Shown here: positions 23,904 to 62,551 of the stretch, in pieces | How the letters are laid out: every line of letters starts with the position of its first letter | Position numbering within the stretch: the first letter of the stretch is position 1 | DNA from: Patescibacteria group bacterium | GTDB taxonomy: Bacteria > Patescibacteriota > Patescibacteriia > UBA10025 > JAHIVO01 | Assembly (NCBI GenBank): GCA_041660605.1 | Contig: JBAZWB010000002.1 | Span: forward strand, 239,940-303,939 | DNA length: 64,000 nucleotides | Reading direction: 5' to 3' | Program-made: the position numbers and the translations under genes | Notes under the pieces: model-generated | The model's input: the letters and a program-made list of their open reading frames with translations, nothing else | Told to the model about the DNA's origin: nothing | Database searches by the model: none

Positions 23904-24593
23904 ATGAAAGATTTTTCCAAACTGGAGAAAAAAATAAAAGTTAAATTTGCCAACCAGGATTTGCTCAAACAAGCGATGGTGCACCGTTCCTACCTGAACG
24001 AACACCCTAGCTTTAGTTTGGGGCACAACGAAAGGCTGGAATTCCTGGGTGATGCGGTGCTGGAACTGGTCGTTACCAGATACCTCTACCTGAACTACGA
24101 AAATCCCGAAGGCGAGCTGACTAACTGGCGCGCCAGCCTGGTGAATTCCAATATGCTGGCGGAGGTCGCCACCGAGTTGGAGCTGAATGAATTCCTGTAT
24201 CTCTCAAAAGGCGAGTCAAAAGACTCCAGCAGTAAAGCCCGTCAGTACATCCTGGCCAACTCCTTCGAAGCGCTGATCGGCTCAATCTACCTGGACCAGG
24301 GCTTGAATATCGTGGAAAAATTCATTCAACAGAATATCATCACCAAGCTGGATGAAATTCTGGACAAAAAGCTTTACCAGGACCCGAAGAGCAAATTTCA
24401 GGAGCATTCGCAGGATAAATTCGGCATCACGCCCTCCTATAGGGTTATTTCCGAAGCCGGACCGGATCACAATAAAAAATTCGTCATCGGCGTTTATCTG
24501 GACAAGGAACTGATTGCCAAAGGCCAGGGCTCATCCAAGCATGAAGCGCAGGTTGACGCCGCGGACAAAGGCCTGAAAGTGAAAGGGTGGTAA
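23904..24593 (+). CDS. rnc: Ribonuclease III
   Basis: NERLEFLGDAVL catalytic signature plus a C-terminal dsRBD. Confidence 0.9.
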   Translation: MKDFSKLEKKIKVKFANQDLLKQAMVHRSYLNEHPSFSLGHNERLEFLGDAVLELVVTRYLYLNYENPEGELTNWRASLVNSNMLAEVATELELNEFLYLSKGESKDSSSKARQYILANSFEALIGSIYLDQGLNIVEKFIQQNIITKLDEILDKKLYQDPKSKFQEHSQDKFGITPSYRVISEAGPDHNKKFVIGVYLDKELIAKGQGSSKHEAQVDAADKGLKVKGW

Positions 24594-26057: not shown

Positions 26058-26258
26058 TTTATTTAGCTACTATTATATTAATCCATAATCCTTTAATATT
26101 ACCCATAAAAGTCTTTACATCCGCTCCTGTCCCTGCTATTATGTTATGGAGACTATGAAAATATTTACCCCCGACAGTCACAAATTAATCTTCTCAAAAA
26201 CTAACGGATAGCTATTCCCCAAAAAGGGGAATTTTTTTTAATATTTAAATGAATTACT

Positions 26259-27176
26259 ATGGTGAACTTCAAAAATCGAAACATTATTTCCATCCGGGAT
26301 TTCTCCAGGGAGGAAATACTGCATATTCTCGGCACCGCCAAAAAATTCAAAAACAAACCGCACCCCGACCTGCTGAAAAGAAAAATTCTGGCCAGCCTTT
26401 TTTTCGAGCCTTCAACCAGAACGAGATTTTCCTTCGAATCTGCTATGCAGCGGCTGGGCGGCTCGGTCATCTCCCTGGCTGACGCCAAAACCAGCTCCTC
26501 GGCCAAAGGCGAATCGGTTTCTGACTCCATAAAAATCGTAGATAAGTATTGCGATGTCATTGTCATGCGCCACTCGCTTGAGGGCGCCGCGCGACTGGCC
26601 GCCGAGGTTACAGACAACCCCATTCTCAACGGCGGCGACGGAGCCAACCAGCATCCCACGCAGACCTTCCTGGATCTCTTTTCCATCATGGAAACCCAGG
26701 GCCGCCTGAAAAATCTCAATGTCGCTCTGGTTGGCGACCTGAAGTACGGACGCACCACGCATTCCCTGGCTTACGCCCTGGGGCTTTTCGGCGCCCGCCT
26801 CTTCTTCGTCGCCCCGCCGTCTTTGCAGATGCCTTTCCATGTCATCCATGACCTGAAAAAAATCAAGGCAAAATATTCCACCTACACCGATCCGGAACGC
26901 CTGATGCCCAAGCTGGATATTTTTTACGCCACGCGCATCCAGAAAGAGCGCTTCGACTACCCTCTGGCTTATGAAAAAGTCAAAGACACCTTTGTCATTA
27001 CCAATAAACTGCTGGCTAAAGTAAAAAAGAATTTCAAGATACTGCACCCCCTGCCGCGGGTGAATGAAATCAACTATGAAGTGGACAATACTCCCTATGC
27101 CTACTACTTCCAGCAGGCGAACAACGGCCTGTATGTACGCCAGGCGCTACTGGCGCTGGTTCTGGGCAAAGCGTAG
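26259..27176 (+). CDS. pyrB: Aspartate carbamoyltransferase catalytic subunit
   Basis: STRTR, HPTQ and HPLP-type motifs. Followed by pyrI. Confidence 0.9.
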   Translation: MVNFKNRNIISIRDFSREEILHILGTAKKFKNKPHPDLLKRKILASLFFEPSTRTRFSFESAMQRLGGSVISLADAKTSSSAKGESVSDSIKIVDKYCDVIVMRHSLEGAARLAAEVTDNPILNGGDGANQHPTQTFLDLFSIMETQGRLKNLNVALVGDLKYGRTTHSLAYALGLFGARLFFVAPPSLQMPFHVIHDLKKIKAKYSTYTDPERLMPKLDIFYATRIQKERFDYPLAYEKVKDTFVITNKLLAKVKKNFKILHPLPRVNEINYEVDNTPYAYYFQQANNGLYVRQALLALVLGKA

Positions 27177-27225: not shown

Positions 27226-27678
27226 ATGAGAGCTTACAAAGTTTACGCCATAAAAAACGGCACGGTCATAGACCACATTCCTGCCACCAAAGGCATGCAG
27301 ATCATTGAATTACTGAAACTGCAGCAATGGAATAAGGCAGTCACGCTGGGTGCCGGGTTCAAAAGCAAAAAACACGGGAAAAAAGACATTATAAAAATCG
27401 AGGATAAGGAGCTGTCTCCGGAAGAAGTCAATAAAATCGCGGTTATCGCTCCGACTGCCACTATTAACATCATCCGCGATTTTAAAATCAGCAAAAAATT
27501 CCGTCCGCAGCTGCCTGAGGTGCTGGAAGCTATTATCAAGTGTCCCAATCCGGCCTGTGTCACCAATCACGATCCGGTGGCCAAAACCAGATTCTACAAA
27601 GAACCCGGGAAAAAATTTGAAATCAGCTGCGCTTACTGCGAACGCTATTTCAGCGACCTGGACATAGAATTATTATAA
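27226..27678 (+). CDS. pyrI: Aspartate carbamoyltransferase regulatory subunit
   Basis: PyrI fold with C-terminal Zn site CPNPAC...CAYC. Confidence 0.85.
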   Translation: MRAYKVYAIKNGTVIDHIPATKGMQIIELLKLQQWNKAVTLGAGFKSKKHGKKDIIKIEDKELSPEEVNKIAVIAPTATINIIRDFKISKKFRPQLPEVLEAIIKCPNPACVTNHDPVAKTRFYKEPGKKFEISCAYCERYFSDLDIELL

Positions 27679-27681
27679 ATA

Positions 27682-28602
27682 ATGGATATCAAAACCAAAA
27701 TCGCCGGTCTTAAATTAAAAAATCCGACAATTTTAGCCTCGGGCATTCTTGGCGTTTCCCGGTCTTCTCTCCAAAATGTCGTAAAAAACGGCGCCGGTGC
27801 CTGTGTCATCAAATCCATCAGCCTTGAGGAAAGAGCCGGGCACAAAGCCCCCAACATGATTACTTTTGAAGCCGGGATGATGAACGCCGTGGGGTATTCT
27901 AATCCGGGCGTTGAGGAAGCTAAAAAAGAATTCACAAAATTAAAAGAACTCGACGCTCCGATCATCGCCAGCATTATCGGCAAGGATGAGAATGAATTCG
28001 CACAAATGGCGGAGAAACTTCTGCCCGGTGAATTCTCCGCTGTGGAAGTGGTGCTGTCCTGCCCGCATACTCCCGGCTATGGAACCATGGCCGGACAAAA
28101 TTCTCCGGAGAATACGGAAAAAATAACCCGCGCTGTGCGGAAGAAAACCAAACTGCCGATTTTCATAAAAATCTCGCCGGATTCAAATCCCATCGGAGAA
28201 GTGGCAAAGGCAGCCGAGGCCGGCGGCGCGGATGGCATTACCGCCGTCAATACCATGGGACCCGGCATGATTATAGATATTCAAACAGGCCAGCCGATAC
28301 TGCATTTTAAAGTCGGTGGCGTTTCCGGCCCGGCTCTGCGTCCGATCGCCGTGCGCTGCATTTATGACATATATAAAGCGGTAAAAATACCCATTATCGG
28401 CTGCGGCGGTGTGACTTATGGCTCTGACGCCCTCCAGATGCTGATGGCCGGCGCCCGGGCGGTGGAAATTGGCACAGGCATTTACTATCGCGGTTCTGAT
28501 ATTTTTCATAAAGTGAATAAAGAAATCAGCGAATTCATGACACAAAAAAAATACGTCGGTTTAAATGATATAATCGGCTTAACCCATAAATTAGAGGAAT
28601 AA
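27682..28602 (+). CDS. pyrD: Dihydroorotate dehydrogenase (class 1B) catalytic subunit
   Basis: FMN-binding TIM barrel (GVSRSS...NTMGPG...GCGGV). Followed by the pyrK partner. Confidence 0.9.
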   Translation: MDIKTKIAGLKLKNPTILASGILGVSRSSLQNVVKNGAGACVIKSISLEERAGHKAPNMITFEAGMMNAVGYSNPGVEEAKKEFTKLKELDAPIIASIIGKDENEFAQMAEKLLPGEFSAVEVVLSCPHTPGYGTMAGQNSPENTEKITRAVRKKTKLPIFIKISPDSNPIGEVAKAAEAGGADGITAVNTMGPGMIIDIQTGQPILHFKVGGVSGPALRPIAVRCIYDIYKAVKIPIIGCGGVTYGSDALQMLMAGARAVEIGTGIYYRGSDIFHKVNKEISEFMTQKKYVGLNDIIGLTHKLEE

Positions 28603-28604
28603 AT

Positions 28605-29423
28605 ATGGAAAATGCCCTGGGAAAAATTGAACAGCCAATTTCACTGCCCATTGTGGAAATTGTTGAAGAAACCGCAACAGTAAAAACTTTTTTCTTTAAA
28701 AAAGAATTCGACTCGCAGCCAGGACAGTTTGTCATAATGTGGATACCGCGCGTTGACGAGAAACCCTTCAGCGTGTCCTATGACGACCATGGCCGGCTTG
28801 GATTATCAATCGCCAACGTCGGGCCTTTTACTAAAAATTTATTTAATAAAAAAGTCGGCGACCTGGTCGGCCTGCGCGGACCATATGGTTCCTGGTTCAA
28901 ACTGAAAAATAATTTTAAAAGGATCCTATTGGTTGGCGGCGGCTACGGCGTGGCACCGCTGGCTTTTTTGGCGCAGCGGGCGGTCAAGCAGAAAATAACC
29001 GTGGATTTTTGCAATGGTGCCCGGACGAAAAGCCTGCTGCTTTTCAAAAAAAGATTGACTGATTATAAGGTAAACCTGCATATCTCGACAGATGACGGCA
29101 GCGACGGGATCAAAGGCACGGTCATAGACGCAACTAACGACTGCCTAGGAAAAAATACCTATGATGCCGTTTATATCTGCGGGCCGGAATTAATGGAGAA
29201 AAAAATTATTGATCTCTGTGCCGAAAAAAACCTTGAGTGCCGGGTCAGCATCGAGAGATACATGAAATGCGGCTTTGGCATCTGCGGGCAGTGCTGCCTG
29301 GACGGGTCCGGAGAGCGCATGTGCCTGGAAGGACCGGTGGTCTCGGGTAAATATGCATTGAAACATAAAGAATTCGGCGCCTACCACCGCGGCAAGAGCG
29401 GCAGGAAAGAATACTACAAATAA
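28605..29423 (+). CDS. pyrK: Dihydroorotate dehydrogenase electron-transfer subunit
   Basis: FAD/NAD-binding domain plus a C-terminal 2Fe-2S CGFGICGQCC. Confidence 0.85.
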   Translation: MENALGKIEQPISLPIVEIVEETATVKTFFFKKEFDSQPGQFVIMWIPRVDEKPFSVSYDDHGRLGLSIANVGPFTKNLFNKKVGDLVGLRGPYGSWFKLKNNFKRILLVGGGYGVAPLAFLAQRAVKQKITVDFCNGARTKSLLLFKKRLTDYKVNLHISTDDGSDGIKGTVIDATNDCLGKNTYDAVYICGPELMEKKIIDLCAEKNLECRVSIERYMKCGFGICGQCCLDGSGERMCLEGPVVSGKYALKHKEFGAYHRGKSGRKEYYK

Positions 29424-29567
29424 TTAATTACAAATCCGAAATTCGAAGTACGAAATCCTAAACAATACTTAATGATAAAATTTAAAACATATTTTGTTTT
29501 AAACATTAAAATTTAGAAATTTGAATTTGTTTCGAATTTCGAAATTCGTGCTTAGTATTTATTTACT
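29424..29567. repeat. Roughly 140-bp intergenic palindromic element, copy 1 (upstream of pyrC)
   Basis: Shares AAATCCTAAAC...ACAAAATTT and TTTAAACATTA(A/G)AATTTAGA...TTCGAA(T/A)TTCG blocks with 32354–32512. Contains the perfect palindrome CGAATTTCGAAATTCG. Confidence 0.6.
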
Positions 29568-30866
29568 ATGGATATAATAAATCTTAAAAACTGCCGGCTC
29601 CCTAACGGCGATATCACCGATATTCTGCTTAGGAATGGGCTGATTGAAAAAATTGAGCCAAACTTGACCGCTAAACACTCCATTGAAATAGGAAAGAACC
29701 TGGTCATCCCCGGGGTGATTGACGCACATGTGCATTTCCGCGAGCCCGGCGGCGAGCAGAAGGAAGACTGGCTGACCGGCGCGCAATCAGCCGCCGCCGG
29801 TGGCGTGACTACTGTCATTGATATGCCGAATAACAATCCGCCGGCGATTGACGAGGCGTCGCTGAATAATAAAAGGGTGCTGGCTGGCAAAAGCATTATT
29901 AACTATGGGCTTTACCTTGGCGCCACCGCTGATAACATTGAACAGATAAAAAAAACAAAAGACGTGGCTGGCGTTAAAATATTTGTCGGCTCTTCTACCG
30001 GCACTCTGCTGGTGTCCGGGGACAAAGAAATCGAAAAGCTTTTTTCATTGCCGAATATCCACTGGGTTATACACGCGGAAGATGAGAGCATTATCAATGC
30101 AAACATTAAAAAATACACGGAAACTGACATCCCATCTGTCCATTCTTTAATCAGGGGGCGGGAAGCGGCGATACAGGCTGTTTCAAGAATTATTAAAATC
30201 GCTAAAAAAACCAAAGCTGAAGTGCATATCTGCCATATCAGCACCGCCGAAGAAGTGGAACTGATTAAAAAGGCAAAAGCCGACGGACTGAAAATTTCCT
30301 GCGAAGTCAGCCCGCATCATCTTTTTCTAAACGAACAATCATACAAAGAATTTGGAAATTTTGTGAAAGTTAACCCGCCCCTGCGCACCGAAAACGATAA
30401 TCAGGCTTTATTCCGGGCTTTGCGCGAAGGCGTGATAGACATCATCGCCACTGACCACGCACCGCACACCCGAGACGAAAAATGGCTTCCATACGAGAAA
30501 GCCCCCTCCGGCATGCCGGAAGTGCAGACATCGTTGCCCCTGATGCTGAACGCCGTTAATGCCAATAAAATATCTTTAAACAGATTAATCGAAGTCATGT
30601 GCCTGATGCCGTCTAAGCTTTTGAAAATAAAAAACAAAGGCCAGATTGCCAAAGGCTATGACGCAGATTTAACCGTTATTGATCTGGAGAAGAAAGCGAT
30701 ATTAAGTAATAAGGACATCAAATCAAAATGCGGCTGGTCGCCATATGACGGCTGGGAGCTGCAGGGCTGGCCGATCATGACCTTTGTCGGCGGGCAGCTG
30801 GTATTTGACCGCGGAAAATTATATAGTGAACATAAAGGCAAGGAAATATTTTATGGAACAATATAA
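29568..30866 (+). CDS. pyrC: Dihydroorotase
   Basis: DAHVHFREPG metal-binding motif and an amidohydrolase fold. Confidence 0.9.
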   Translation: MDIINLKNCRLPNGDITDILLRNGLIEKIEPNLTAKHSIEIGKNLVIPGVIDAHVHFREPGGEQKEDWLTGAQSAAAGGVTTVIDMPNNNPPAIDEASLNNKRVLAGKSIINYGLYLGATADNIEQIKKTKDVAGVKIFVGSSTGTLLVSGDKEIEKLFSLPNIHWVIHAEDESIINANIKKYTETDIPSVHSLIRGREAAIQAVSRIIKIAKKTKAEVHICHISTAEEVELIKKAKADGLKISCEVSPHHLFLNEQSYKEFGNFVKVNPPLRTENDNQALFRALREGVIDIIATDHAPHTRDEKWLPYEKAPSGMPEVQTSLPLMLNAVNANKISLNRLIEVMCLMPSKLLKIKNKGQIAKGYDADLTVIDLEKKAILSNKDIKSKCGWSPYDGWELQGWPIMTFVGGQLVFDRGKLYSEHKGKEIFYGTI

Positions 30867-31524
30867 AAAAGATTTCATCACTTTCTTGGCTGAATCAAAT
30901 GCTCTGCAGTTCGGCGAATTCACTTTGAAAAGCGGCCGGCTCTCTCCGTATTTTATTAATACCGGGCTTTTTGACACCGGAGAGCAGATCGCCACTCTTG
31001 GCGAGTACTACGCTGATGCCATAAAAAACGCCTATGGCGACAATTTCGACGTGCTCTACGGCCCGGCTTACAAAGGCATTCCTTTGTGCGTCACGGCCGC
31101 GGCTGCCCTGGCTCGTCGCCATGGCATAAATAAAAACTTTACCTTCAACCGCAAGGAAATAAAAGACCACGGAGATAAAAAGCTGATGGTCGGCCACGCT
31201 CCCCAGGCCGGCGAGCGGGTACTGATCATTGATGATGTCATTACCGACGGCGGCGCCTTGGTGGAATCCATGGAAATTTTACAGTCAACCGCCGGCCTGA
31301 AGTATGCCGGCGTTATTTTGTCAGTCAACCGCCAGGAAAAAACCAAACAGGGCAAGAATGCCGTAGAAGAATTCACCAATAAATACCAAATGCCCATTAA
31401 TTTTATCATTACTATCCGTGATATTATTGAATTCCTCAATAACCGTGAAATTAACGGCCGGGTATATCTAAACGACGATCTTAAAAATAAGATGGAAAAT
31501 TATTTAAAACAATATGGCATCTAA
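30853..31524 (+). CDS. pyrE: Orotate phosphoribosyltransferase
   Basis: PRPP-binding VLIIDDVITDGGA. The start overlaps the pyrC end. Confidence 0.85.
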   Translation: MEQYKKDFITFLAESNALQFGEFTLKSGRLSPYFINTGLFDTGEQIATLGEYYADAIKNAYGDNFDVLYGPAYKGIPLCVTAAAALARRHGINKNFTFNRKEIKDHGDKKLMVGHAPQAGERVLIIDDVITDGGALVESMEILQSTAGLKYAGVILSVNRQEKTKQGKNAVEEFTNKYQMPINFIITIRDIIEFLNNREINGRVYLNDDLKNKMENYLKQYGI

Positions 31525-32353
31525 CATTCAAAAAGACCGGATTAAAACCAGCTACGCAGAGCGCGCCAAAATTACTAAAAATCCTGTGGCCAAAAGCCTG
31601 CTGGAGCTGATGGAGCAGAAAAAAACCAATCTCTGCCTGGCTGATGACGAAAACGAACCTGAAAAATTTCTGGAACGGGCAGAATGGCTGGGCCCGGAGA
31701 TTGCCGTCCTGAAAACACATATTGATATTATTGATAATTTTACGCCGGAATTTATCGGGCAGCTGACCGCGCTTTCTAAAAAACATAATTTCCTGATTTT
31801 CGAAGACCGCAAATTCGCCGATATCGGCAATACAGTGAAAATGCAGTATCGCCGCGGCCTGTATAAAATTGCCGAATGGGCGCACCTGACCAACGCACAT
31901 ATCGTGCCCGGGCCTGGCATCATCGAGGGCCTGAAATCCGCCGCGGCTAATATAAAAGAACCCCGCGGCCTGATCCTGCTGGCGCAGATGAGTTCCAAAG
32001 GCAACCTGGCGACCGCGGAATATACAAAAACAGCCGTGCAAATGGCGCTTAATTATGAAGACTTCGTGGTGGGTTTTATCGGCAACGGCGGTGATATTAA
32101 CGAATTGAAAAAATTAACGGCGATAGCACCTTCACAGTTTATTATTCTGACGCCGGGCGTGAAAATCGGCGGCGGTGATGACGCCCTGAAACAGCAATAC
32201 ACAACGCCAAGCGAGGTGATAGCGGCGGGTTCTGATATAATCATCGTCGGCCGGGGCATTTATGAGTCCAGCGATCCGCAAAAAATCGGACAACTCTACC
32301 GCCAGGCCGGTTGGGAAGCATACCTAAAAAGGATAAAAAATCCGAAATCCTAA
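31514..32353 (+). CDS. pyrF: Orotidine 5'-phosphate decarboxylase, eukaryote/URA3-like type
   Basis: Long collinear matches to yeast URA3 blocks: KTNLC...LLKTH.DI, FLxFEDRKFADIGNTVK.QY, IAEWA..TNAH, EPRGL.L.A..S, SDIIIVGRG and AGWEAYL.R. Confidence 0.85.
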   Translation: MASNIQKDRIKTSYAERAKITKNPVAKSLLELMEQKKTNLCLADDENEPEKFLERAEWLGPEIAVLKTHIDIIDNFTPEFIGQLTALSKKHNFLIFEDRKFADIGNTVKMQYRRGLYKIAEWAHLTNAHIVPGPGIIEGLKSAAANIKEPRGLILLAQMSSKGNLATAEYTKTAVQMALNYEDFVVGFIGNGGDINELKKLTAIAPSQFIILTPGVKIGGGDDALKQQYTTPSEVIAAGSDIIIVGRGIYESSDPQKIGQLYRQAGWEAYLKRIKNPKS

Positions 32354-32512
32354 GCACGAAATTCGAAACAAATCCTAAACCCTGATGACAAAATTTCTAA
32401 ACAGTAATAATTACCAGTTTTTAACATTAGAATTTAGATATTGTTTCGAGCTTCGAAATTAGTGCTTCGAATTTATAAAATATACATTATAAATTATTAA
32501 TTATAAATTATC
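32354..32512. repeat. Roughly 140-bp intergenic palindromic element, copy 2 (upstream of the carbamoyltransferase gene)
   Basis: See copy 1. Same blocks in the same order. Confidence 0.6.
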
Positions 32513-33448
32513 ATGAAACACCTACTCCATCTCAAAGACTACTCCGCCGAAGACATCAAACACCTGATCCATAAGGCAATGGATATCAAAGCCAACCAGG
32601 CGCATTACCACGACTCCCTGAAAAACAAAAACCTGATCATGCTTTTCCAAAAAGGTTCAACGCGTACGCGCTTATCATTTGAGGCAGGCATGACGCAGCT
32701 TGGGGGGCACGGCATATTCGTAGATCAGAAAACCACCCAATTCTCCCTGACCGATTTCCGCGATGAAATACGGGCGGTCATGCGCTTCGGGGACATTCTG
32801 ATGTTTCGGGCCATGAAATTCGCCGATGTGCAGACAGCCGCTGACCAGGATATGATACCGGTCATAGACGCCTGCTCGGAAAAATACCATCCCTGCCAGG
32901 CATTAGGCGATCTGCTGACTATGGCCGAGCATTCCGGTGGGCTGGAAAAAATTAAAAAAATCGTCTGGCTGGGCATTGAAAATAACGTACTCAATACTTT
33001 GAAGCTGGCCTGCGCCAAACTAGGGATAGAAGTATATATTGTCTCACCAAAAGTGCATCCTATCAGCGTTGACGAGGAACTGAATAAAATGGCTGAGGCC
33101 ACAGGCTTGATTCATAAAACTTTAAACCTGGAGGAGGCTCTGAAAAATGCCAACTATGTGCACACCGACACCTGGATGGATATGGAATTTTTTGATAATG
33201 GCAAAGTCAAACCGGACTACAAAGACGAGTATGAAGAACGCATCAAATTATTTAAACCCTACCAGCTGAATGCGGAACTGATAAATAGATACGCCCCACA
33301 GGCGAAAATCATGCACTGCATGCCCTGCCACATTGGCTATGAAACAACCCGCGACGCCATTGACCACCCGAACTCCGTCATCTTTGACCAGGCAGAAAAC
33401 CGCATGCACGCCCAAAAGGCGATCATCTTGCACCTGCTGGGGAAATAA
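32513..33448 (+). CDS. argF: Ornithine carbamoyltransferase-family transcarbamylase
   Basis: STRTR carbamoyl-phosphate motif and an HCMP-type second-substrate motif. Exact substrate uncertain. Confidence 0.6.
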   Translation: MKHLLHLKDYSAEDIKHLIHKAMDIKANQAHYHDSLKNKNLIMLFQKGSTRTRLSFEAGMTQLGGHGIFVDQKTTQFSLTDFRDEIRAVMRFGDILMFRAMKFADVQTAADQDMIPVIDACSEKYHPCQALGDLLTMAEHSGGLEKIKKIVWLGIENNVLNTLKLACAKLGIEVYIVSPKVHPISVDEELNKMAEATGLIHKTLNLEEALKNANYVHTDTWMDMEFFDNGKVKPDYKDEYEERIKLFKPYQLNAELINRYAPQAKIMHCMPCHIGYETTRDAIDHPNSVIFDQAENRMHAQKAIILHLLGK

Positions 33449-33505: not shown

Positions 33506-33615
33506 ATTATTGCTTACCTTAGGCGATTCTGCTAAGATAATAGACCAACAAAAAAAGAAAAAAAGTAATATTAACAATAAAATATACAGTAAAAACCCAC
33601 GAAAGGAGAACAAAG

Positions 33616-36356
33616 TGGCTGTTTTTCGATTAGCAATCGGCTCACACAGTCACCCGGACGTCTTTAAAATATTCAATTTTGAGACGGAAGGTTCACTGCC
33701 GCTGAACACTCAGATTATCGCCGATCATTTTATTGATTCGGTGACTGAGTATTCAGTAAAAGAAATGCCACCCGGTAAATTTCTCGAAGTAATCTACCAT
33801 AATGGTGTCATAGACCCCTGTCAGGAGTCTATTCTGACAGCGTGCGAATCACTCGGCGTTCCTGTCATTGCCGCCAAGGTATCGAAGCGCTATTACAGTA
33901 ATGCTCAGGACGATGTTTATGTAAACAAAATGGTTCACATTACGTTTACCAGCGAGCCTGCACTCGAAACGCTTCGTCCGCGAGGCAGCCGCAAAGGCAT
34001 GCAAGTGTTCGACCTTACCGCCATGAGCGATAACGAACTCATTGCTCTGGGAAACGGCACTCATGATCGGCGTAAAGGCTGTGATCTTGCTCTGACTCTC
34101 GAAGATATGGAAAAACTAAGGGAGATGCAAATTCGCGACAAGCTGCCGTGCGTTACCGACGTTTTTCTTGAAACATTCGGCGCTCGATGGTCGGATCATT
34201 GCAATCATAAGAAATGGAGAAAGCTGAGCCTCTTCAGGATTCTCAAAGATGCTACTAAAAGGATCAGAAATTCCAACCTTGTGTCTGCCTTCGTTGACAA
34301 CGCCGGCGTCTGGAAATTCTTTGAGAAATTCGTGATCGCGCTCAAACTGGAGACTCACTGCAGTCCGAGCCAGATGGAACCATACGGCGGCCAGCTCACC
34401 AAGCTAGGCGGCGTATTGCGCGACATTATTTTTTGTGGTCTTGGTTTTAGACCGATTCTCAACATTGAGATGACCGCAGTCGGAGAATTCATCCGAAAGA
34501 AATTCCCTCTGCTTGAAGGAATAGCCCTCTCTGCCCGGACAATCGCCCGTGAAACCATTCGAGCCATTGCTGACTATGGCAATCCTATGGGAGTTCCTAT
34601 GGCTTTGGCAAGAATGCTCAGCCATTTTTCTTTCAGCGGAAAAGTATTCGCGCTGGGAGGAACTGTCGGCCTTGGACGTGAGGATTGTGCACTACAAGGT
34701 ATTCCTCAAAAAGGCGACTTTGTATTAATGGTTGGGGGCCGGACGGGCAACGACGGTCTGCATGGCGCAACCGTAAGTTCCGGAGAAATTACCGAACAAA
34801 CGGACAGCGGGGATTCCTGCCATGTCCAGATCGGTAATCCATTTCAGGAACAAAAAATGGTTATGGCCATTGAAGACCTGCGTGACGCTGGATGCCCTCG
34901 CAGATTAAATGACTTTGGCGCTGCTGGTATTGTTTCCGCCATCGCGGAAATGGGAGAGCAGGCTGAAGGCGGCGGAGGTGTTCTAGTAAATCTGGCGCTT
35001 GTTCCTCTTAAGTGCGCTGGACTGGAAAACTGGCAGATTGCTCTATCGGAAAGCCAGGAACGCGGAGGCATAATCATCATTCGTGAGAAGCTTGACGAGG
35101 CTATTGAAATTCTGCGTCGTCACCAGCTTGAGTACGCGGTTGTCGGTATTGTCACCTGCAATGGCCGTTTCCAGATGATCTACGATCCTGATGCGACTGA
35201 TCTGCATTCAGATATGCCGCTTTCCGGAGAAATCTGTCTGGATGTGCCATACGTCTATTTCGATGAATGCCCATTGCCGCAGATCGAGATTATTGAACCG
35301 CCGGTTCGGACTGATACTGTCGATTTCCCAGAAATCACACTTGATAATGTAGAAGAAATGGCTGTTCAAGTAACTAGCCATTTTGATGCATGTAATCAAG
35401 AGCAGGCTACAACCCAGTACGACGGTACAGTAATTGGAACTAATGTCCAGGGATCTCTCTATGGTCGCGATTATAATGTAACCTCTCATCTGGCTGTCAG
35501 TCGACCGGTGTATGGGAGACCCTATGCCGTGACCATCAGCCAGAGCTTCAGCCCCTGGCAATTTGAAGTCAATCCGCAACTGGCCGCCCGGAACGCAATG
35601 ATCGATGCCATCATTACCCAGGTAGCGAGCGGTATCCGAAGAACTGACGTTTGCGAAGCTGACAATTTTTACACCCCTACTCAACTGGATCCCTATGCCT
35701 ACTACTGGTTGGTTAAACAGGTGCAAGAAATTGCCGCACTCTCCGAACTGACCGAAACGCCATTTGTCAGCGGCAAAGACAGTTCGTCTGGCACGGGATT
35801 TGGCGTGAATGTTGTCCCCAGCGTTGTGATTACGGCCATGGGCAAGATTAGCGACTATCGCAATCTCATAATGCACCTGTGGCAGAAACCTTGCAGTACT
35901 CTAATTGCTGTAGGACCGCAGTTCAAGACTTTGAGCGGCTCTATACTGTCTTCATCGCTCGGGCTAACCGGAACGATACTTGAAAGTATGCCACGAGAAG
36001 AAGTGCGAGAGTATCTCGACCGGCTTTACCAACTGGTAACCTCTGGCAAGGTACTATCGTCCGTTCCCATCAACCGCGGAGGGATTTTGCTTCGTCTCTT
36101 CGAGGGAATAATTGCTTCAGGGTTTGGTGTGAAAACACCGCTCTGTCAGGAATTATTTCCGGAAAGTTACGGAGCAGCATTGCTGGAAGTCCCGTCTTCT
36201 GCCGCCGGGTATATTTTAACCAATTACGCCGACCTCAATCCACGGATTGTCGGTGAAATCGTCGACTACAGAAGCCTGACAGTATGTGGTCGAAACATTG
36301 ATCTGAATCTTCTATTCAATGGCTGGAACACAACATTTCAAAAGGCGGTGGCGTGA
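33616..36356 (+). CDS. purL: PurS-PurL fusion-like phosphoribosylformylglycinamidine synthase (FGAM synthase) large subunit
   Basis: GTG start after an AAGGAG RBS. N-terminal PurS-like (VIDPCQESILTACESLGV). PurL core ETHCSPSQMEPYGGQLTKLGG (compare ETHNHPSAIEPYQGAATG). Confidence 0.6.
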
Positions 36357-36994
36357 TGAAAAAGCGAGTAACCATACTCTTTGCTCCCGGGACAAACTGT
36401 CACACGGAAACAATCAAGGCTTTTAATCAGGCTGACGCGGACGCCCGACTTGTATTTCTGGACGATATCCTCAAGGGACGGATCGCAATCACTGACTGCG
36501 ACATCTTCTTTGTCCCTGGTGGATTTTCCTTCGGAGATCATATCAACACCGGCACCGTTGTTGCCATACTACTGCGTGATTTCTTCCCGTTGCTTCTTGA
36601 GGCGGGGATTCCTGTGGGAGGTGAGTGCAACGGATTCCAGATCCTCATGCGGGCAGGTTTCTTTGGCCACGACGTTACCCTGACTGAAAATGTTTCCGGG
36701 GTATTCTGCAGCCGGCCAGTGTTGCACCGGGTAATTGCTTCACCGTGCATCTGGACTGCCGGGCTTGAGGGGAGAGTGTTTGGATTCCCTTCAGCACATC
36801 ACGGTGGCAGGATCGTTGGTAACACCGATCGGCTTAATGTGGTTATGACCTACGAGTCACTATCACCTAACGGCAGCCGTATCGCCGCTATCTGCTCAGA
36901 AAACGGGCAAGTGTTCGGCATTATGGACCACATGACACGCCCATATGACAATCCGGACGGACAGTTCATTTTCCAAAACGTTCTCAAGGCGTAA
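36353..36994 (+). CDS. purQ: FGAM synthase glutamine amidotransferase subunit
   Basis: Class I GATase: GGFSFGD, Cys nucleophile in GECNGFQIL, and a downstream His. Its start overlaps the purL stop. Confidence 0.6.
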   Translation: MMKKRVTILFAPGTNCHTETIKAFNQADADARLVFLDDILKGRIAITDCDIFFVPGGFSFGDHINTGTVVAILLRDFFPLLLEAGIPVGGECNGFQILMRAGFFGHDVTLTENVSGVFCSRPVLHRVIASPCIWTAGLEGRVFGFPSAHHGGRIVGNTDRLNVVMTYESLSPNGSRIAAICSENGQVFGIMDHMTRPYDNPDGQFIFQNVLKA

Positions 36995-47938: not shown

Positions 47939-48010
47939 GCCGAGGTAGCTCAGTGGTAGAGCGAAGGACTGAAAATCCTTGCGTCGCCAGTCCGATTCTG
48001 GCCCTCGGCA
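47939..48010 (+). tRNA. tRNA-Phe (GAA)
   Basis: Acceptor GCCGAGG/CCTCGGC, anticodon loop CTGAAAA, T-arm GCCAG-TCCGATT-CTGGC. Confidence 0.85.
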
Positions 48011-48035
48011 TTTGAGAATAATTTCGTGATTAAAA

Positions 48036-48190
48036 AATGCAGCTCAGTGGGCCGAAGCCACGAGTGAAGCAAACTGCTTTGCTTCACGAGGAGCTGAGGC
48101 GGGCGAGATGATACGGGAACCGCCATCGAGCCCCGGGAGAGCGAAGGACTGAAAATCCTTGCGTCGCCAGTCCGATTCTGGCTCTCGGCA
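48036..48190 (+). pseudogene. Disrupted second copy of tRNA-Phe with an 85-nt hairpin insert in the D region
   Basis: 48129–48190 reproduces the 3' two-thirds of tRNA-Phe with 1 mismatch. The 5' part (GCAGCTCAGTGG) is separated by a GC hairpin insert. Confidence 0.5.
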
Positions 48191-48497
48191 TAAGTGAAGC
48201 ATTAATAACCCAAACTGAAAATTTTACCCCGTACTTGACGCGAAGCGGCATAGTGCGGGGCCTTGCGTCGCCAGCATGCCCCACGAAGTTGAACGTAGCG
48301 AAACGTAGCGGGGGGGAGACCCGCCCCGCTGACTAGCGGGGTTCTTGAGAACAAATAATAAATCAAATGACGAAATCCCGCCGCATGGCGGGATGGCCCT
48401 CGACATCTTCAGGGGCTTGCTTTTGTTGTGGGATAAACTATACTATACTGAAACTATATTAGATAAACACTAAACTTGAGTATATATTTCCCCTTAT

Positions 48498-50455: not shown

Positions 50456-50754
50456 CGGGGTGTAGTTCAGTTGGCTAGAACGCTCGCTTCTTGCCCCGCC
50501 CCAGGTACAGGATTGCGCTCTTAATAAAAAATTATAGAGAAATATATTCAGGTCGGGGTGTAGTTCAGTTGGCTAGAACGCTCGCTTTGGGAGCGAGAGG
50601 TCCGCGGTTCGAGTCCGCGCACCCCGACCTGAATATGTTTTTAAAACCCTGGTGGCGGGGTGAAGGAGCGAGAGGTCCCCGGTTTCCCGCCACAAATATT
50701 TAATCTAATGTAGGCGGGACCCCGCCGAATGGCGGTGGCGAGTCCCTACCTGCC
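50456..50754 (+). pseudogene. Outer, disrupted tRNA-Pro copy enclosing the intact gene
   Basis: 5' half (50456–50491) and 3' half (GGAGCGAGAGGTCC ... CGCGCACCCCGACC at about 50651–50754) of tRNA-Pro. The intact tRNA and GC hairpins lie between them. Confidence 0.45.
50554..50627 (+). tRNA. tRNA-Pro (UGG)
   Basis: Acceptor CGGGGTG/CACCCCG, anticodon loop TTTGGGA, T-arm CGCGG-TTCGAGT-CCGCG. Confidence 0.85.
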
Positions 50755-51222: not shown

Positions 51223-51400
51223 ATAAACACGCGCGGGTATCGTATAACGGTATTACCTCAGCTTTCTCCCGAAAAATAAGGAGCGAAGCGACTATATTTT
51301 TCGGGATCCTCGCAACAAGATGGGCTTGTTCCACCCTCCTCATCGTTGCGGGACAAGCTGATGACAGGGGTTCTGCGCCATAGGTACACCCGCCTTTGGC
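51223..51400 (+). pseudogene. Disrupted copy of tRNA-Gly(UCC) with an 88-nt insert in the anticodon loop and a diverged T-arm
   Basis: 5' part identical to the intact gene through CCTCAGCTTTC. Then an insert, then AAGCTGATGACAGGGGTTC. Confidence 0.5.
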
Positions 51401-51455
51401 GGGGAACTCATTAAATAAAAAATTTATATAGTTAATTCCCATAGAGCGGGTATCG

Positions 51456-51519
51456 TATAACGGTATTACCTCAGCTTTCCAAGCTGATGACAGGGGTTCG
51501 ACTCCCCTTACCCGCTCCA
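51456..51519 (+). tRNA. tRNA-Gly (UCC) with encoded CCA
   Basis: Acceptor GCGGGTA/TACCCGC, anticodon loop TTTCCAA, T-arm AGGGG-TTCGACT-CCCCT. Confidence 0.85.
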
Positions 51520-56713: not shown

Positions 56714-58252
56714 TCATAGCCACGCGCGGGGGTAGTTCAGTGGTAGAACGCTTCCTTGCCAAGGAAGAGGTCGCGGGTTCAAGTCCCGTTCCCCGCTCCA
56801 ATCGGAAAATTTGAATTTTTCAGCGGCGCAAAGCCACTGATTAGATAATGAAATTAGGGCTTTCCCGCCAACGAGGCGGAAGTTCGAGCCAATTTTTTGT
56901 ATAAAATTTCTTTTTGCTTCTAAATTTTCTTGTTTTGATGTAAAAGGGGCTTGGTGAGCGTCTAATATCCATTTTCTGAAGAGTTCGAGCCGAGCGTCGC
57001 CCTTATTCTTAAAACTATCCAGTAATTCCTTAATTTCAACCAGCCGGTTGACGATTTTTTGTTTGGCTTTGTCAAATACCTCTTTAGAAATTCCTTGGTC
57101 TAATCTCTCATCAAGCAGTAGCAATAGTTTTTCCTCTAATTTAGCTTGCTCGCCTTTTAACGCCTGAATTTCCTCGCCATGCTTAGTTGTTGCTTCTTTG
57201 ATTTCCCCGTCAACCTTAATTAACATTTTGTCTTTCCAATCATCAGGCAGGGCGACGCTCTCAATGGTTTTATTGATCTGGCTGACCAAGTGCCTTTCTT
57301 CAATGAACTTCTGCGAGCAAACCACATTTTTCTTGGTACAGCGATAATAAACATATTTCAACCCTGAAGGTTTTTTCTTTCTTTCGGCAGTTACCATGCG
57401 TCCGCACTCACCACAGGTGAATACGCCCCGGAATGCGAAAGGCAGAAGGTCTTTTTTAACCCTGGTCTTTCGTTTGGCCGAGTGAACCTTCTGCACTTCG
57501 TCAAATAACTGCTTGGTAATTATCGGCTGGTGACTGCCCTGGTACATTTCGCCCTTGTGCAAAAATACGCCGTAATAAAACGGATTGGTCAGCATGTCTA
57601 CTAGCTTGGAAATGACGATTTGCTTATTTGTCCTACGGCTCACCAAGCCCAGCGAAAGCGACAGCTTCTGCAGTGAATAAATCGTGTGATTGCCCCCGGC
57701 ATACGCCTCAAAGAGCTTTTTGACTATCTGCCAGCGCTCCGGGTCTTTGATGATGGTGTGGTGCCGTAATTCGTTCAGATAGCCGACAGGCGCGAGCGCT
57801 GGCCATTCGCCCCGGCGGAGCTTTTGGCGTATGCCGCGTTTGATATTTTCGCATAAGTTATCAATGTAGTATTTGCTCTGGCCAAAAGCGATATTAAGCA
57901 TGAATTTTCCCTGTGGCGTGGCATCAAACCAAAATGTAGGAAATTTTAAACCGCCAATCTTGCCAGTATCCACCATAAAAATGATTTTTCCGCCGTCAAT
58001 GCTGTTTCTGGCCAATCTGTCCGGATGCCACGCCAAAATGCCCATAGGGCCATTTTCTTCTATGCGCTTGATCATTTTATTAAAAAGAGGACGACCGGGC
58101 ACTTTGGCCGTCTTGCTTTCTATGTATTCGTCAATTACTTCTAAATTTTCCTTAATCGCAAATTCTCTTAATTCCGTTATTTGCGATTCAATGGATAAAA
58201 CCTGCCGGTCGTCCTCGTCAGTTGATTTCCTGGCGTAGATTACATATTTCAT
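56714..58252 (-). CDS. Large serine recombinase (resolvase/invertase N-domain, recombinase domain, zinc ribbon)
   Basis: N-terminal YARKSTDEDDRQVLSIESQ with the catalytic Ser. Downstream recombinase domain with CGECG...YYRC zinc ribbon. The 3'-terminal roughly 170 nt runs through IR-A and antisense tRNA-Gly, so the true C-terminus is uncertain. Confidence 0.85.
   Translation of the reverse strand: MKYVIYARKSTDEDDRQVLSIESQITELREFAIKENLEVIDEYIESKTAKVPGRPLFNKMIKRIEENGPMGILAWHPDRLARNSIDGGKIIFMVDTGKIGGLKFPTFWFDATPQGKFMLNIAFGQSKYYIDNLCENIKRGIRQKLRRGEWPALAPVGYLNELRHHTIIKDPERWQIVKKLFEAYAGGNHTIYSLQKLSLSLGLVSRRTNKQIVISKLVDMLTNPFYYGVFLHKGEMYQGSHQPIITKQLFDEVQKVHSAKRKTRVKKDLLPFAFRGVFTCGECGRMVTAERKKKPSGLKYVYYRCTKKNVVCSQKFIEERHLVSQINKTIESVALPDDWKDKMLIKVDGEIKEATTKHGEEIQALKGEQAKLEEKLLLLLDERLDQGISKEVFDKAKQKIVNRLVEIKELLDSFKNKGDARLELFRKWILDAHQAPFTSKQENLEAKRNFIQKIGSNFRLVGGKALISLSNQWLCAAEKFKFSDWSGERDLNPRPLPWQGSVLPLNYPRAWL
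56726..56800 (+). tRNA. tRNA-Gly (GCC) with encoded CCA; integration target
   Basis: Acceptor GCGGGGG/TCCCCGC, anticodon loop TTGCCAA, T-arm GCGGG-TTCAAGT-CCCGT. Confidence 0.85.
56795..56886. repeat. IR-A, left copy (92 bp, perfect)
   Basis: Reverse complement equals 58329–58420. Confidence 0.9.
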
Positions 58253-58328
58253 AGTTGTCGCTTTCGCTTAATTCTTATCAGTCAAAATTGGCTACCCCGC
58301 GGGAGCGGGGTGTTCCGCAATGCGGAGC

Positions 58329-58420
58329 CGAACTTCCGCCTCGTTGGCGGGAAAGCCCTAATTTCATTATCTAATCAGTGGCTTTGCGCCGCTGAAAAAT
58401 TCAAATTTTCCGATTGGAGC
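58329..58420. repeat. IR-A, right copy (92 bp)
   Basis: Perfect inverted match to 56795–56886. Confidence 0.9.
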
Positions 58421-58560
58421 TGCTTTTACCGAAAAGTTCGGACTTTCTTTCTATGAATTCAGGCGGGCGGAAGGGGGGTCTGGGGGGAATTCCGCCCGCC
58501 TGCCCTCTCCGCAAAAAAATTAATTAAATGGGCTTTTAAAAAAACAAGGAGATTTTTCGT
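58415..58560. repeat. IR-B, left copy (146 bp)
   Basis: Reverse complement matches 63473–63618 with about 5 mismatches. Shares the TGGAGC core with IR-A. Confidence 0.85.
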
Positions 58561-58652
58561 AATCCCGCAGAAGCGGGATGCGCCGCGTTAAGGATAGCCC
58601 TTGACCCTCCCACCCGTTCGCAGGCATTTACTCCCTGAAATCAGGATATTCT

Positions 58653-58680
58653 AATTTTGAATATTCATATTTTGAATATA
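58653..58680 (+). promoter_or_regulatory. Candidate operator: two direct TTTTGAATAT repeats with an internal GAATATTC palindrome upstream of the XRE gene
   Basis: TTTTGAATAT at 58655–58664 and 58670–58679. Confidence 0.4.
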
Positions 58681-58690
58681 TCATAACCTT

Positions 58691-58909
58691 ATGGATAAGA
58701 CAATATATCTGAATAAATACAAACGAATTGTCGAAAAGCTTAAAAGTGCCCGTCTTGAAGCAGGATTAACGCAAAAACAAATAGCAGACAGGCTAAAGGT
58801 GCCACAATCGTATATATCCAAAGTTGAAGCAGGGGACCAAAGAATCGATATTATTGAGCTAAAAGCATTTGCCGATCTTTATAAGAAATCGATCACTTAC
58901 TTTATTTAA
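58691..58909 (+). CDS. XRE/Cro-type helix-turn-helix transcriptional regulator
   Basis: LTQKQIADRLKVPQSYISKVEAG HTH_3 signature. Confidence 0.75.
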   Translation: MDKTIYLNKYKRIVEKLKSARLEAGLTQKQIADRLKVPQSYISKVEAGDQRIDIIELKAFADLYKKSITYFI

Positions 58910-59082
58910 TTTCAATCAATAAAAATGGGCGTTTCTATACGCTTTTTTTATTTATCCACAGGGTAAGTGGGTTGACGGTTTATTTTATATGTGATAAGGT
59001 GTAAAGGAATCAATATTCTAGGATATTAATACGATAAATAATCACATAACTTATACCTTAAGAATTAACCTTAAAAACACAT

Positions 59083-59319
59083 ATGAAACCTAAACCGCCT
59101 ACAAATGAGACAAAAAGAGATAGATTCAAGAGACTTGCTGAATACAGGACAAATGAAGTATTGAGTAAATTAAAAATACTTGGTAATTGCTCTAATCAAC
59201 AAGCATATGACTATACTGAAGAGGATATACGAAAAATTTTTGATTCAATTGAAAAAACGACACGAGCCGTAAAATCAAAGTTTCAATTAACGCCTAGGGA
59301 TAAAGAATTTAAATTCTAA
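59083..59319 (+). CDS. Small hypothetical protein
   Basis: 78-aa basic ORF directly upstream of the ATPase gene. Confidence 0.4.
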   Translation: MKPKPPTNETKRDRFKRLAEYRTNEVLSKLKILGNCSNQQAYDYTEEDIRKIFDSIEKTTRAVKSKFQLTPRDKEFKF

Positions 59320-59341
59320 GTGTCTTTTTAAAGTTTATTTT

Positions 59342-61087: not shown

Positions 61088-61092
61088 ACTAT

Positions 61093-61962
61093 ATGAACGT
61101 ACAACAATTAATTCAACAAATAACCCCCCTTTACAATAACTACAAAAGGAGAAAGAACAATATTTCTGGGACAGCGGCTCTCGAAATAATGTGGGATATA
61201 GGTGATTTATTAAAAACAAGAATTGATACCGACAGTATTGCTCCACACACATTATACCGAAATATTTATGGCAAATCGGAAGGGAAAGACAACATCACCC
61301 AAAAAAGTTATATAACAAGAGAATTTTTAAGTCGCTCTTACCGAATAAGAAAGTACTTTAGCAATAAAGATCAAATCCAGCAACAGCTACCGAGCCTGAA
61401 AAAATTTATTTTTTTCCGAGAAGCAATGCCGTTTTTTGATAATAAAAAATATAAACTCTCTGGCGATGAAGGAAAAAAATTGATTAATCTATTAAACAGT
61501 AACCTAACGGATAAACAAATACTTTCTTCAATTAAGGTTTTGCAAAAACAAAAAATTAACATACGGAATCCCCGAAGTCAAAAATTACATGAGCTTGAAA
61601 ACGAAAAAGTAATTTTCATCAATTTTTATAATTACATTTATTCATTTTTTAAACATAAAGATTACCGAGCAGCTCAACAACAGTTAGACAATAATCGTAT
61701 TATGCCTAATTATATTAAAGATTTGGCCAGGAATACTAGCTCAATGTCTCAAGATGGGCTAAAAAACTATAACCTACAGATACCACTGATGATCGGAGTA
61801 ATTTGGCAGCAATTCTCTGAAATGGTTAATAACCTCAATAAAGATAGTGATCCTAAAAAACGAAGAAGGTTTAGGAGGCTTATATCACCCGAAAGAATTG
61901 TAAGGCTCGCGGACATGTTATTCGCTCTCACTTCTGAAAATAATTACAAAAACTTTAAATAA
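61093..61962 (+). CDS. Hypothetical protein (operon partner 2)
   Basis: 6-bp gap from the ATPase gene. 289 aa, no recognised motif. Confidence 0.5.
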   Translation: MNVQQLIQQITPLYNNYKRRKNNISGTAALEIMWDIGDLLKTRIDTDSIAPHTLYRNIYGKSEGKDNITQKSYITREFLSRSYRIRKYFSNKDQIQQQLPSLKKFIFFREAMPFFDNKKYKLSGDEGKKLINLLNSNLTDKQILSSIKVLQKQKINIRNPRSQKLHELENEKVIFINFYNYIYSFFKHKDYRAAQQQLDNNRIMPNYIKDLARNTSSMSQDGLKNYNLQIPLMIGVIWQQFSEMVNNLNKDSDPKKRRRFRRLISPERIVRLADMLFALTSENNYKNFK

Positions 61963-61976
61963 TTAATAATAATCAT

Positions 61977-62549
61977 ATGCAAGAAAAAATCGATAGCGAG
62001 TTAAACGCAATTAACAACATTATCAAATCTCTTGAATCTCTGGATGAGGCGGCCAAAAAGCGCGTTCTTAGTTACGTATCAGAAAGGTTGGGTCTAAATA
62101 CTCTAGGCAAGCCCGGATTTTCTAATGAAGTCAAACCCTCTCAAATTAATCAAAATGCTCCAACTGGACAGGATCAAATAATAAATCTGGGGTTAAAAGA
62201 TAGTGTGGTTGATATTAGGACCCTAAAAGATCAAAAATCGCCAAAGACAGCTACACAAATGGCGGCCTTAGTAGCTTTTTATTTACAAGAATATTCGCCT
62301 GAAAATGAACGCAAAGAAATAATAAAGCCACAGGACATAACAAAATATTTTAAGCAAGCGAATTATCCCTTACCCAAAGGAAGACCAATAGTTACACTAG
62401 TAAATGCAAAAAATGCTGGCTACCTCGAATCAGTCGGCGAAAGCGCGTTCAAATTAAACCCGGTTGGCTATAATTTAATTGCCCATCAACTTTCTGAAGA
62501 AAAAAGTAGCGGTAATTCAAAAAGGCAACACAGGGCAAAGAAAAAATAA
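61977..62549 (+). CDS. Hypothetical protein (operon partner 3)
   Basis: 190 aa with a basic C-terminus. Confidence 0.5.
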   Translation: MQEKIDSELNAINNIIKSLESLDEAAKKRVLSYVSERLGLNTLGKPGFSNEVKPSQINQNAPTGQDQIINLGLKDSVVDIRTLKDQKSPKTATQMAALVAFYLQEYSPENERKEIIKPQDITKYFKQANYPLPKGRPIVTLVNAKNAGYLESVGESAFKLNPVGYNLIAHQLSEEKSSGNSKRQHRAKKK

Positions 62550-62551
62550 AT

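Follow-up and report, generated by a model that had tools for sequence, protein, structure and literature searches.

The window analysed here is a stretch of 64,000 nucleotides from a Patescibacteria group bacterium (contig JBAZWB010000002.1, positions 239,940 to 303,939), and the subject is a pair of palindromic elements found in two spacers of a biosynthetic gene cluster, all of which is on the plus strand. The cluster is made up of pyrB (26259-27176), pyrI (27226-27678), pyrD (27682-28602), pyrK (28605-29423), pyrC (29568-30866), pyrE (30853-31524) and pyrF (31514-32353), followed by an ornithine-carbamoyltransferase (OTCase)-like gene (32513-33448), a purL-like gene (33510-36356) and purQ (36353-36994). 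Spacer 1, of 144 nt, separates the end of pyrK at 29423 from the start of pyrC at 29568, and spacer 2, of 159 nt, separates the end of pyrF at 32353 from the start of the OTCase-like gene at 32513. The two elements bracket the pyrC-pyrE-pyrF block (29568-32353, plus strand). Both are old, diverged members of a hairpin family that is shared across phyla.

Element copies 1 and 2

Copy 1 (29432-29560) fills the pyrK-pyrC spacer and copy 2 (32338-32474) lies between pyrF and the OTCase-like gene, both being given on the plus strand. Each is a gene-less hairpin with two heptamer-array arms around a loop of approximately 60 nt, which contains no open reading frame (ORF). The left arm of copy 1 (29432-29463) reads AAATCCG AAATTCG AAGTACG AAATCCT AAAC and its right arm (29529-29560) GTTTCGA ATTTCGA AATTCGT GCTTAGT ATTT, the terminus ...GCTTAGTATTT being a degenerate last heptamer. 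In copy 2 the left arm (32338-32380) is AAATCCG AAATCCT AAGCACG AAATTCG AAAC plus AAATCCTAAAC, and the right arm (32443-32474) is GTTTCGA GCTTCGA AATTAGT GCTTCGA ATTT. In the 64 kb there are exactly two occurrences of the right-arm motif GTTTCGARYTTCGAAATTMGTGCTT, and 100 shuffled sequences gave none. Motif, repeat and profile searches of the window revealed no third copy. The elements have a GC content of 22-30% (22% in copy 1), against 48% for the pyr genes.

The initial annotation had described the two spacers as sharing ordered sequence blocks, forming an intergenic element of 140 bp. The spacers and the blocks are present as described, and both copies are recovered by a profile made from copies in other genomes. 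However, some of the blocks are approximate, copy 1 reading AATGATAAAATTT and not TGATGAT..., and while the two elements are real, their extents are those given above and copy 2 is partly inside pyrF. Its first 16 nt provide the last codons and the stop of that gene (NPKS*). The window PyrF ends in ...KRIKNPKS, where relatives have ...KRITNAQ, ...KRINN or ...KKISTI, making it 1-3 residues longer, with the extra residues coming from copy 2. Between copy 2 and the start codon of the OTCase-like gene there is an AT-rich tail of 38 nt (32475-32512, plus strand) that is outside the repeat family. A perfect 16-bp palindrome noted previously in copy 1, CGAATTTCGAAATTCG, is indeed present at 29533-29548 within the right arm, although it belongs to the family consensus and is not peculiar to this locus. 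Promoter and terminator scans of the plus strand of both spacers gave nothing above background, with one weak promoter-like match across the 38-nt tail.

Two similar palindromic sequences directly upstream of pyrC and of the OTCase-like gene, in one cluster, could be a shared operator or attenuator co-regulating the pyrimidine and arginine steps that consume carbamoyl phosphate. This had been proposed on the basis that both copies precede such enzymes. That basis fails for copy 1, as pyrC encodes dihydroorotase, which does not use carbamoyl phosphate, and the aspartate carbamoyltransferase gene pyrB, encoding the actual user, has no copy upstream. No Rfam 15 family, PyrR or other, matches the elements when the whole window is scanned at gathering scores, and around copy 1 there are only chance-level matches at E<=10. 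Nor are copies 1 and 2 any more alike than copies from different phyla, with 66-76% identity between the two and as much as 79% between either one and copies in other phyla.

A separate feature is found in front of pyrB, where a terminator-like hairpin, ATTCCCCAAAAAGGGGAAT followed by T8, is located about 15 nt upstream of the start codon (window 26195-26258). It is a candidate uridine triphosphate (UTP)-sensitive or other leader attenuator of the pyr cluster, and pyrimidine control might sit there and not at the repeats.

The same gene order, gyrA ... rpmF nusB rnc ... pyrBIDKCEF ... OTCase, is kept in three Patescibacteria relatives (L082, L084 and L086), whose PyrC sequences are 61-63% identical to that of the window. 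In all three the pyrK and pyrC genes overlap by a few nucleotides, and no copy of the family is present in the 21 kb around the pyr cluster of each. Copy 1 is therefore a lineage-specific insertion. The two gene-less copies have entered a formerly tight pyrBIDK-pyrCEF-(car)-argF cluster in this Patescibacteria lineage, and nothing ties them specifically to carbamoyl-phosphate metabolism. With the junctions of the relatives lacking the element, and with copies beside unrelated genes in many phyla as described below, an arginine/pyrimidine operator or attenuator is very improbable.

Two further differences exist between the window and these relatives. In L084, carA and carB are found between pyrF and the OTCase gene (L084:12783-18284), whereas the window has copy 2 and not these genes at the equivalent site (32354-33448), and the part of the window that was annotated showed no gene for a carbamoyl-phosphate synthase. 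In L082, the pyrF-OTCase spacer, the site equivalent to that of copy 2, contains a different palindrome (L082:12772-12850) with CCAATAN / TTGGTCA-type heptamers. Against the family profile this palindrome scores E 0.33. It suggests that heptamer-array hairpins belong to a broader superfamily in which one arm sequence can be exchanged for another.

A hairpin family in distant phyla

An arm motif with 19 specified bases, TCGANNTTCGAAATTNGTGCTT, was scanned over one genome per prokaryotic species. A total of 79 genomic stretches match it, against approximately 4 expected by chance (a uniform-composition estimate), and all 79 come from metagenome-assembled genomes. The hosts include Desulfobacterales and other Thermodesulfobacteriota, several groups of the candidate phyla radiation (CPR), Verrucomicrobia, Planctomycetes, Acidobacteria, Aminicenantes, Ignavibacteria, Bacteroidetes, Omnitrophota, uncultured Gammaproteobacteria and one Thermoplasmata archaeon. 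The flanks of the motif matches show that the foreign copies have the anatomy of the window copies. The consensus of the left half is AAATYCG AAATYCG AAKNNCG AAATCCG AAAC AAATYCAAA; this is followed by a variable loop, A-rich before T-rich, and by the right half TTTGRATTT GTTTCGA RTTTCGA AATTCGT GCTTCGR ATTT. The arms are inverted arrays of CGAAATY heptamers, with successive CGAA and TTCG spaced by exactly 7 nt in 161 and 176 cases, far above any other spacing. The ends that mark members of the family, AAATYCG...CGRATTT, are present in the window copies.

A profile was made from 20 canonical copies and searched against the 79 loci, identifying 104 distinct matches. Of these, 59 are full length (94-198 nt, median approximately 134), and some loci have as many as 3 copies in 8 kb. 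When run with nhmmer on the window, a profile that includes no window sequences recovers the two copies and nothing else, with E values of 2e-22 for copy 1 and 5e-26 for copy 2 over profile positions 2-137. The copies of the family have sharp ends and unrelated flanking sequences, and arm identity is 70-80% from CPR bacteria to Desulfobacterales and the Thermoplasmata archaeon.

The foreign copies are found tightly between genes, and these genes are diverse. They encode ABC transporters, acyl-CoA ligases, an AMP-binding enzyme, TatD, Rrf2, a permease, peptidase M48, glyoxalase, aldehyde dehydrogenase, flavoproteins, DUF885, VWA, ferredoxin, GDPD, Slp and MnmA, with no pyr or arg genes among the listed neighbours in other genomes. 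Many copies scattered at unrelated genes was the outcome that the initial annotation itself had set down as telling against a regulator. The genes on either side tend to point the same way, co-directional pairs accounting for 40 of the 51 classifiable contexts. A full-text literature search with four arm sequences returned no paper, the searchable literature being incomplete.

Variation on this structure is seen in some genomes. In several Desulfobacterales (L011, L025, L045 and L057) a nested insert of approximately 40 nt, ...GGTTCGACGAGCTCACCACCCTGAGCCAAGTCGAAGGGC..., is present in the left arm and looks like an unrelated small second repeat. In an uncultured gammaproteobacterium, both copies (L012:150-330 and L012:7810-7985) are flanked by short GC-rich hairpins, CTTGTGC..GCACAAG and CTCGCGC..GCGCGAG, that resemble repetitive extragenic palindromic (REP) sequences.

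The family arms and PF05635 genes

Clustering of all of the ORFs in the 79 loci gave one small family that recurs in distant genomes. It is PF05635 (23S_rRNA_IVP; hereafter IVP), or TIGR02436, annotated as 'four helix bundle protein', and the nearest solved chain is 2rld. In two of the loci, L013 and L004, the IVP ORF sits in the loop of a family hairpin. The arrangement in L013 is an arm, AAAATTCGAAGCACGAATTTCGAATCTCGAAAC, then 8 nt, an ATG, 121 codons, a stop and ...TTGTTTCGGATTTCGATATTCGGATTTCGGATTT, so that the ORF fills the loop exactly, and this cassette is placed between two co-directional host genes.

Metagenomes were scanned with four aligned IVP proteins, yielding more than 517 relatives, and 80 loci were retained. 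At 66 of these loci the stop codon is followed within 80 nt by an arm of the family, and on the 5' side the arm reaches directly to the ATG. The consensus of the 5' cassette end is AAATcCGAAactCGAAAttCGAAATcCGAAACAAATTCaA directly followed by ATGACc..., and that of the 3' end is TAA tGTTTtGAacATTTGaaaaTTtGaATTTtGAaaTTGTTTCGgATTTCGAtATTCGaATTTCGgATTT. Both match the reverse complement of the short-element consensus over the entire length of the cassette ends. The full-length cassette is approximately 480-500 nt, with the arms placed around a PF05635/TIGR02436 gene of approximately 120 aa. A trace of the gene is also found in the short copies: AATGACC, which is the start context in 29 of 74 cassettes, is kept in 22 of 59 short copies, compared with 0.9 in shuffled sequences. 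The TGATGA(T/C)AAAATTT block of the window spacers is probably a remnant of the cassette start.

The IVP family is very large, having at least 7995 clusters at E<=1e-10, and its members are much alike across phyla, with 74-94% identity among the top matches. Its genes are co-oriented with their neighbours, with 35 +/+ loci and 2 -/- loci. None of the 40 IVP loci tested is inside an rRNA gene. In the window itself, the 16S rRNA aligns with the entire length of the Rfam SSU model (1502 nt covering model positions 1-1533) and thus contains no large insertion. In two other CPR genomes, IVP genes (L047:1100-1800 and L007:1300-2000) are flanked by other types of inverted arm, AAATGACAAAT... and AAGCATCAAAT..., therefore the arm sequence varies between IVP subfamilies.

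Short copies could arise from IVP cassettes through loss of the ORF. It is likely that the window copies are gene-less derivatives of this kind, resembling miniature inverted-repeat transposable elements (MITEs), and that their source is a selfish hairpin cassette of the intervening sequence (IVS) type located in operon spacers, rather than an operator. The second suggestion of the initial annotation, that a MITE-like repeat had landed twice, was essentially right, with the amendment that the parent appears to be an IVS-type cassette with a PF05635 gene and not an insertion sequence encoding a transposase.

Folding, strand and orientation

Structure prediction on the spacer RNA, which had been recommended for these spacers, gives long hairpins. 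In single-sequence folds, each copy forms one long imperfect hairpin, at -27.8 kcal/mol (z -4.3) for copy 1 and -33.6 kcal/mol (z -4.8) for copy 2. Across the family, 87.6% of arm cells pair in the 30-pair arm register, compared with 21-63% when the register is slid. RNAalifold retained only an inner 9-bp stem. There is no covariation in the arms, the observed values being below those of shuffles, because the arm sequence itself is conserved; selection on RNA structure is therefore not demonstrated.

The two strands of the element are not equivalent. The one with G.U pairs at three conserved positions folds better in 27 of 40 copies, and it is the transcribed strand in 29 of the 40 co-directional contexts (29 versus 11). 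When orientation is instead set by the IVP ends, this bias is gone, with 9 versus 14 and 17 ambiguous. Both window copies have the minority orientation. The position of an ATGAYAAAA remnant on the plus strand is a weak hint as to their direction relative to IVP. The proposal that they are antisense to the IVP reading direction was considered and dropped, since the cassette-end profiles score -3.6 and +3.9 bits for the two copies and 23 versus 30 for the family.

These observations bear upon the possibility that the hairpin is useful to its host, as RNA punctuation that provides an RNase III or exonuclease barrier site, sets different stabilities for the segments of an operon and is kept by selection rather than by selfish spread. 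The tight location within co-directional pairs, the orientation bias of the asymmetric arm with respect to transcription, the favouring of one RNA strand by G.U pairs and the strong conservation of arm sequence across phyla are all in keeping with such a function. Against it are the arms without covariation, the equivalent junctions of the relatives without an element, the window copies being in the minority orientation with the weaker-folding strand transcribed, and the loss of the bias when the IVP ends define orientation. In addition, the presence of copies on predicted viral contigs and the link to a selfish-looking gene suggest parasitism. Punctuation maintained for the benefit of the host is considered unlikely.

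A role for RNase III can be proposed for a selfish element too. Once transcribed, the imperfect stem of approximately 45-55 bp in the operon RNA would be a substrate of the RNase III of the host, as are rRNA IVSs. This cleavage is proposed because of the rRNA IVS precedent and because rnc is present in the window. The rnc gene (23904-24593, plus strand; Pfam Ribonuclease_3 and dsrm) encodes a candidate trans-acting enzyme for cutting of the hairpin, and its proximity to the copies is probably a coincidence. Such cutting would leave the polycistronic RNA in three segments, pyrBIDK, pyrCEF and argF-purLQ, and would account for insertions being tolerated in operons and rRNAs.

Mobility and relationship to known elements

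Several observations weigh against the reading of the window copies as derivatives of a mobile cassette. There is no IVP gene in the 64-kb window. No target-site duplication beyond chance was found in the flanks of 47 copies, where direct repeats of 2, 3, 4 and 5 nt were observed versus shuffled at 3/3.25, 2/1.01, 0/0.28 and 1/0.18, counts too small to separate from chance. The family copies have no target motif or preferred flanking sequence. No recurrent or recognisable transposase is present near the copies in the 79 loci, only PF05635 having emerged there. It is from distribution only that we infer mobility, and we also infer the direction of derivation, for which loss of the ORF and capture of an ORF by a pre-existing hairpin are both possible. 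To these can be added the absence of arm covariation, the ambiguous orientation of the window copies with respect to the direction in which IVP is read, and the folding of their transcribed (plus) strand, which is poorer than that of the opposite strand at -26.2 versus -29.3 and -29.7 versus -40.3 kcal/mol.

If the cassette does move, it is possible that the IVP acts on the arms or that an enzyme is supplied in trans. Insertion into the loop of a pre-existing hairpin finds no reflection in the flanks, which have no complementarity. BLAST searches with the low-complexity filter on found no similarity in PLSDB plasmids, GenBank phages or E. coli genomes. Among the viral contigs of IMG/VR, a first arm pattern gave 0 matches and a second gave 19, approximately 9 of which are complete short copies and none of which has an IVP gene. 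These contigs may be proviruses or misclassified, and they are a possible vehicle for transfer.

The small size, terminal inverted repeats, sharp ends and several copies per genome are also what would be expected of a conventional MITE, that is, the remnant, shortened by deletion, of an insertion sequence whose transposase moves it by acting on the terminal inverted repeats. Like a MITE, the element is non-coding and resembles the two ends of a longer gene-carrying element. Unlike a MITE, it has no target-site duplication, no transposase recurs near its copies, and PF05635, the sole ORF found between arms of the family, is not a known transposase. A conventional MITE is an improbable origin for the element.

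A still more doubtful candidate is a REP element, or a REP doublet forming a hairpin (REPIN), moved by the Y1/HUH transposase associated with such repeats (RAYT). A palindromic intergenic repeat without target duplication, and with a small palindrome of its own in the right arm, has some resemblance to these. However, the arms have no GTAG or CGTC head and are heptamer arrays of 32-45 nt, against 20-40 nt for REPs. There is no Y1 transposase among the recurrent neighbouring ORFs in the 8-kb loci searched, and E. coli genomes, in which REP and enterobacterial repetitive intergenic consensus (ERIC) sequences abound, show no similarity. The family also crosses phyla, whereas REPIN-RAYT systems are described as being inherited vertically within lineages (bioRxiv 10.1101/2022.05.22.493013).

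Other palindromic and heptameric repeats are comparable to the element in part. The ERIC sequences, also called intergenic repeat units (IRU), the REP sequences, bacterial interspersed mosaic elements (BIME) and REPINs of the Proteobacteria are imperfect palindromes in transcribed intergenic regions, often in operons. An ERIC is approximately 127 nt, and palindromes of the ERIC/REP type affect mRNA stability and processing. The family differs from the ERIC, REP and REPIN repeats in having no sequence similarity to them, in spanning phyla and domains, in its heptamer substructure and in the associated IVP gene. Heptanucleotide intergenic repeats have been described as TAACTGA in Beggiatoaceae, Cyanobacteria and Bacteroidetes (PMC4679880) and as heptamer arrays in Geobacter (PMC2700814). 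The family has in common with these, and with the short tandemly repeated repetitive (STRR) sequences of cyanobacteria, intergenic repeats with a 7-nt period near start codons, and with the TAACTGA repeats it shares an occurrence in distant phyla with no known mechanism of transfer (PMC4679880). Those are direct tandem arrays of a single heptamer, whereas the family has degenerate CGAAATY heptamers, arranged as two inverted arms whose ends are defined.

The closest likeness is to the intervening sequences of rRNA genes. The IVS of Coxiella burnetii is a selfish element of 428 nt in helix 45 of the 23S rRNA, in which a 28-bp stem of terminal inverted repeats encloses a loop with an S23p (PF05635) ORF, and RNase III cuts it out of the transcript (PMC4990558). 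The same paper cites Ralph and McClelland (1993) for the proposal that mobility is the function of the ORF. In the rRNA genes of CPR bacteria, PF05635 ORFs are found along with many short insertions without an ORF at IVS sites (PMC11270868). As with the IVSs of Leptospira and Coxiella, the family has a long stem made from terminal inverted repeats, an ORF of approximately 120 aa belonging to PF05635 in the loop of the full-length form, a composition that is AT-rich relative to the host, a sporadic horizontal distribution and a location within a longer transcript. As with the CPR rRNA insertions, short forms without an ORF exist (PMC11270868). The differences are that the family occupies spacers between protein-coding genes, with none of the tested IVP loci in rRNA, and that gene-less derivatives are abundant, the two window copies being examples. 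The CGAAATY-heptamer arm sequence is also conserved across phyla, and the likeness to the Coxiella and Leptospira IVSs is one of architecture. No description of an IVS-class variant with a location in mRNA spacers was found in the searchable literature, which is itself incomplete.

The Avd accessory protein of diversity-generating retroelements is a member of the same PF05635 four-helix-bundle family. The cassettes differ from these retroelements in being seen without a reverse transcriptase, template or variable repeats.

Other repeats and a recombinase gene are present in the window away from the pyr cluster. A gene for a large serine recombinase (56714-58252, minus strand; Resolvase, Recombinase and Zn_ribbon_recom) adjoins a tRNA-Gly and is flanked by an inverted pair, 56795-56886 / 58329-58420, that is 100% complementary. 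Beside it is a segment of 4.9 kb bounded by inverted repeats of 146 nt (58415-58560 and 63473-63618, 97% complementary), which encodes a HATPase_c_3 protein, two unknown proteins and a protein with a 'pPIWI-associating nuclease' domain. The region 56714-63618 looks like an integrated or invertible defence module. Three direct-repeat pairs (34-69 nt, 90-100% identical), at 47955-48203, 50456-50587 and 51233-51479, overlap tRNA-Phe, tRNA-Pro and tRNA-Gly, and a tRNA is called for just one member of each pair. It may be that tRNAs have been partly duplicated here, as in integration scars.

For the pyr cluster, a tempting regulatory story is removed, and in its place is a cluster that has been invaded twice by a foreign hairpin element. 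The copies are locally ordinary in function, being selfish insertions, and it is the IVS-class variant to which they belong that is of interest. Repeats of this family can pass for regulatory motifs, and they probably break metagenome assemblies, many of the IVP contigs being approximately 1 kb.

The family connects the rRNA intervening sequences, a puzzle of 30 years' standing, with the large uncharacterised PF05635/TIGR02436 family and with the AT-rich heptamer palindromes of uncultivated bacteria. Should the cassette be mobile, it does so with no recognisable transposase or target duplication, and the arms are still 70-80% identical across phyla. It can tentatively be suggested, as an idea that is somewhat less likely to be right than wrong, that PF05635 genes and gene-less hairpins make up one widespread class of selfish cassette in the operons and rRNA genes of bacteria and archaea. 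Such cassettes would be tolerated through removal or cutting of the conserved heptamer-array stem at the RNA level and would spread across phyla independently of a transposase, possibly by means of an Avd-like protein acting on the hairpin RNA or DNA, and the classical 23S IVS would be the special case that was noticed first.

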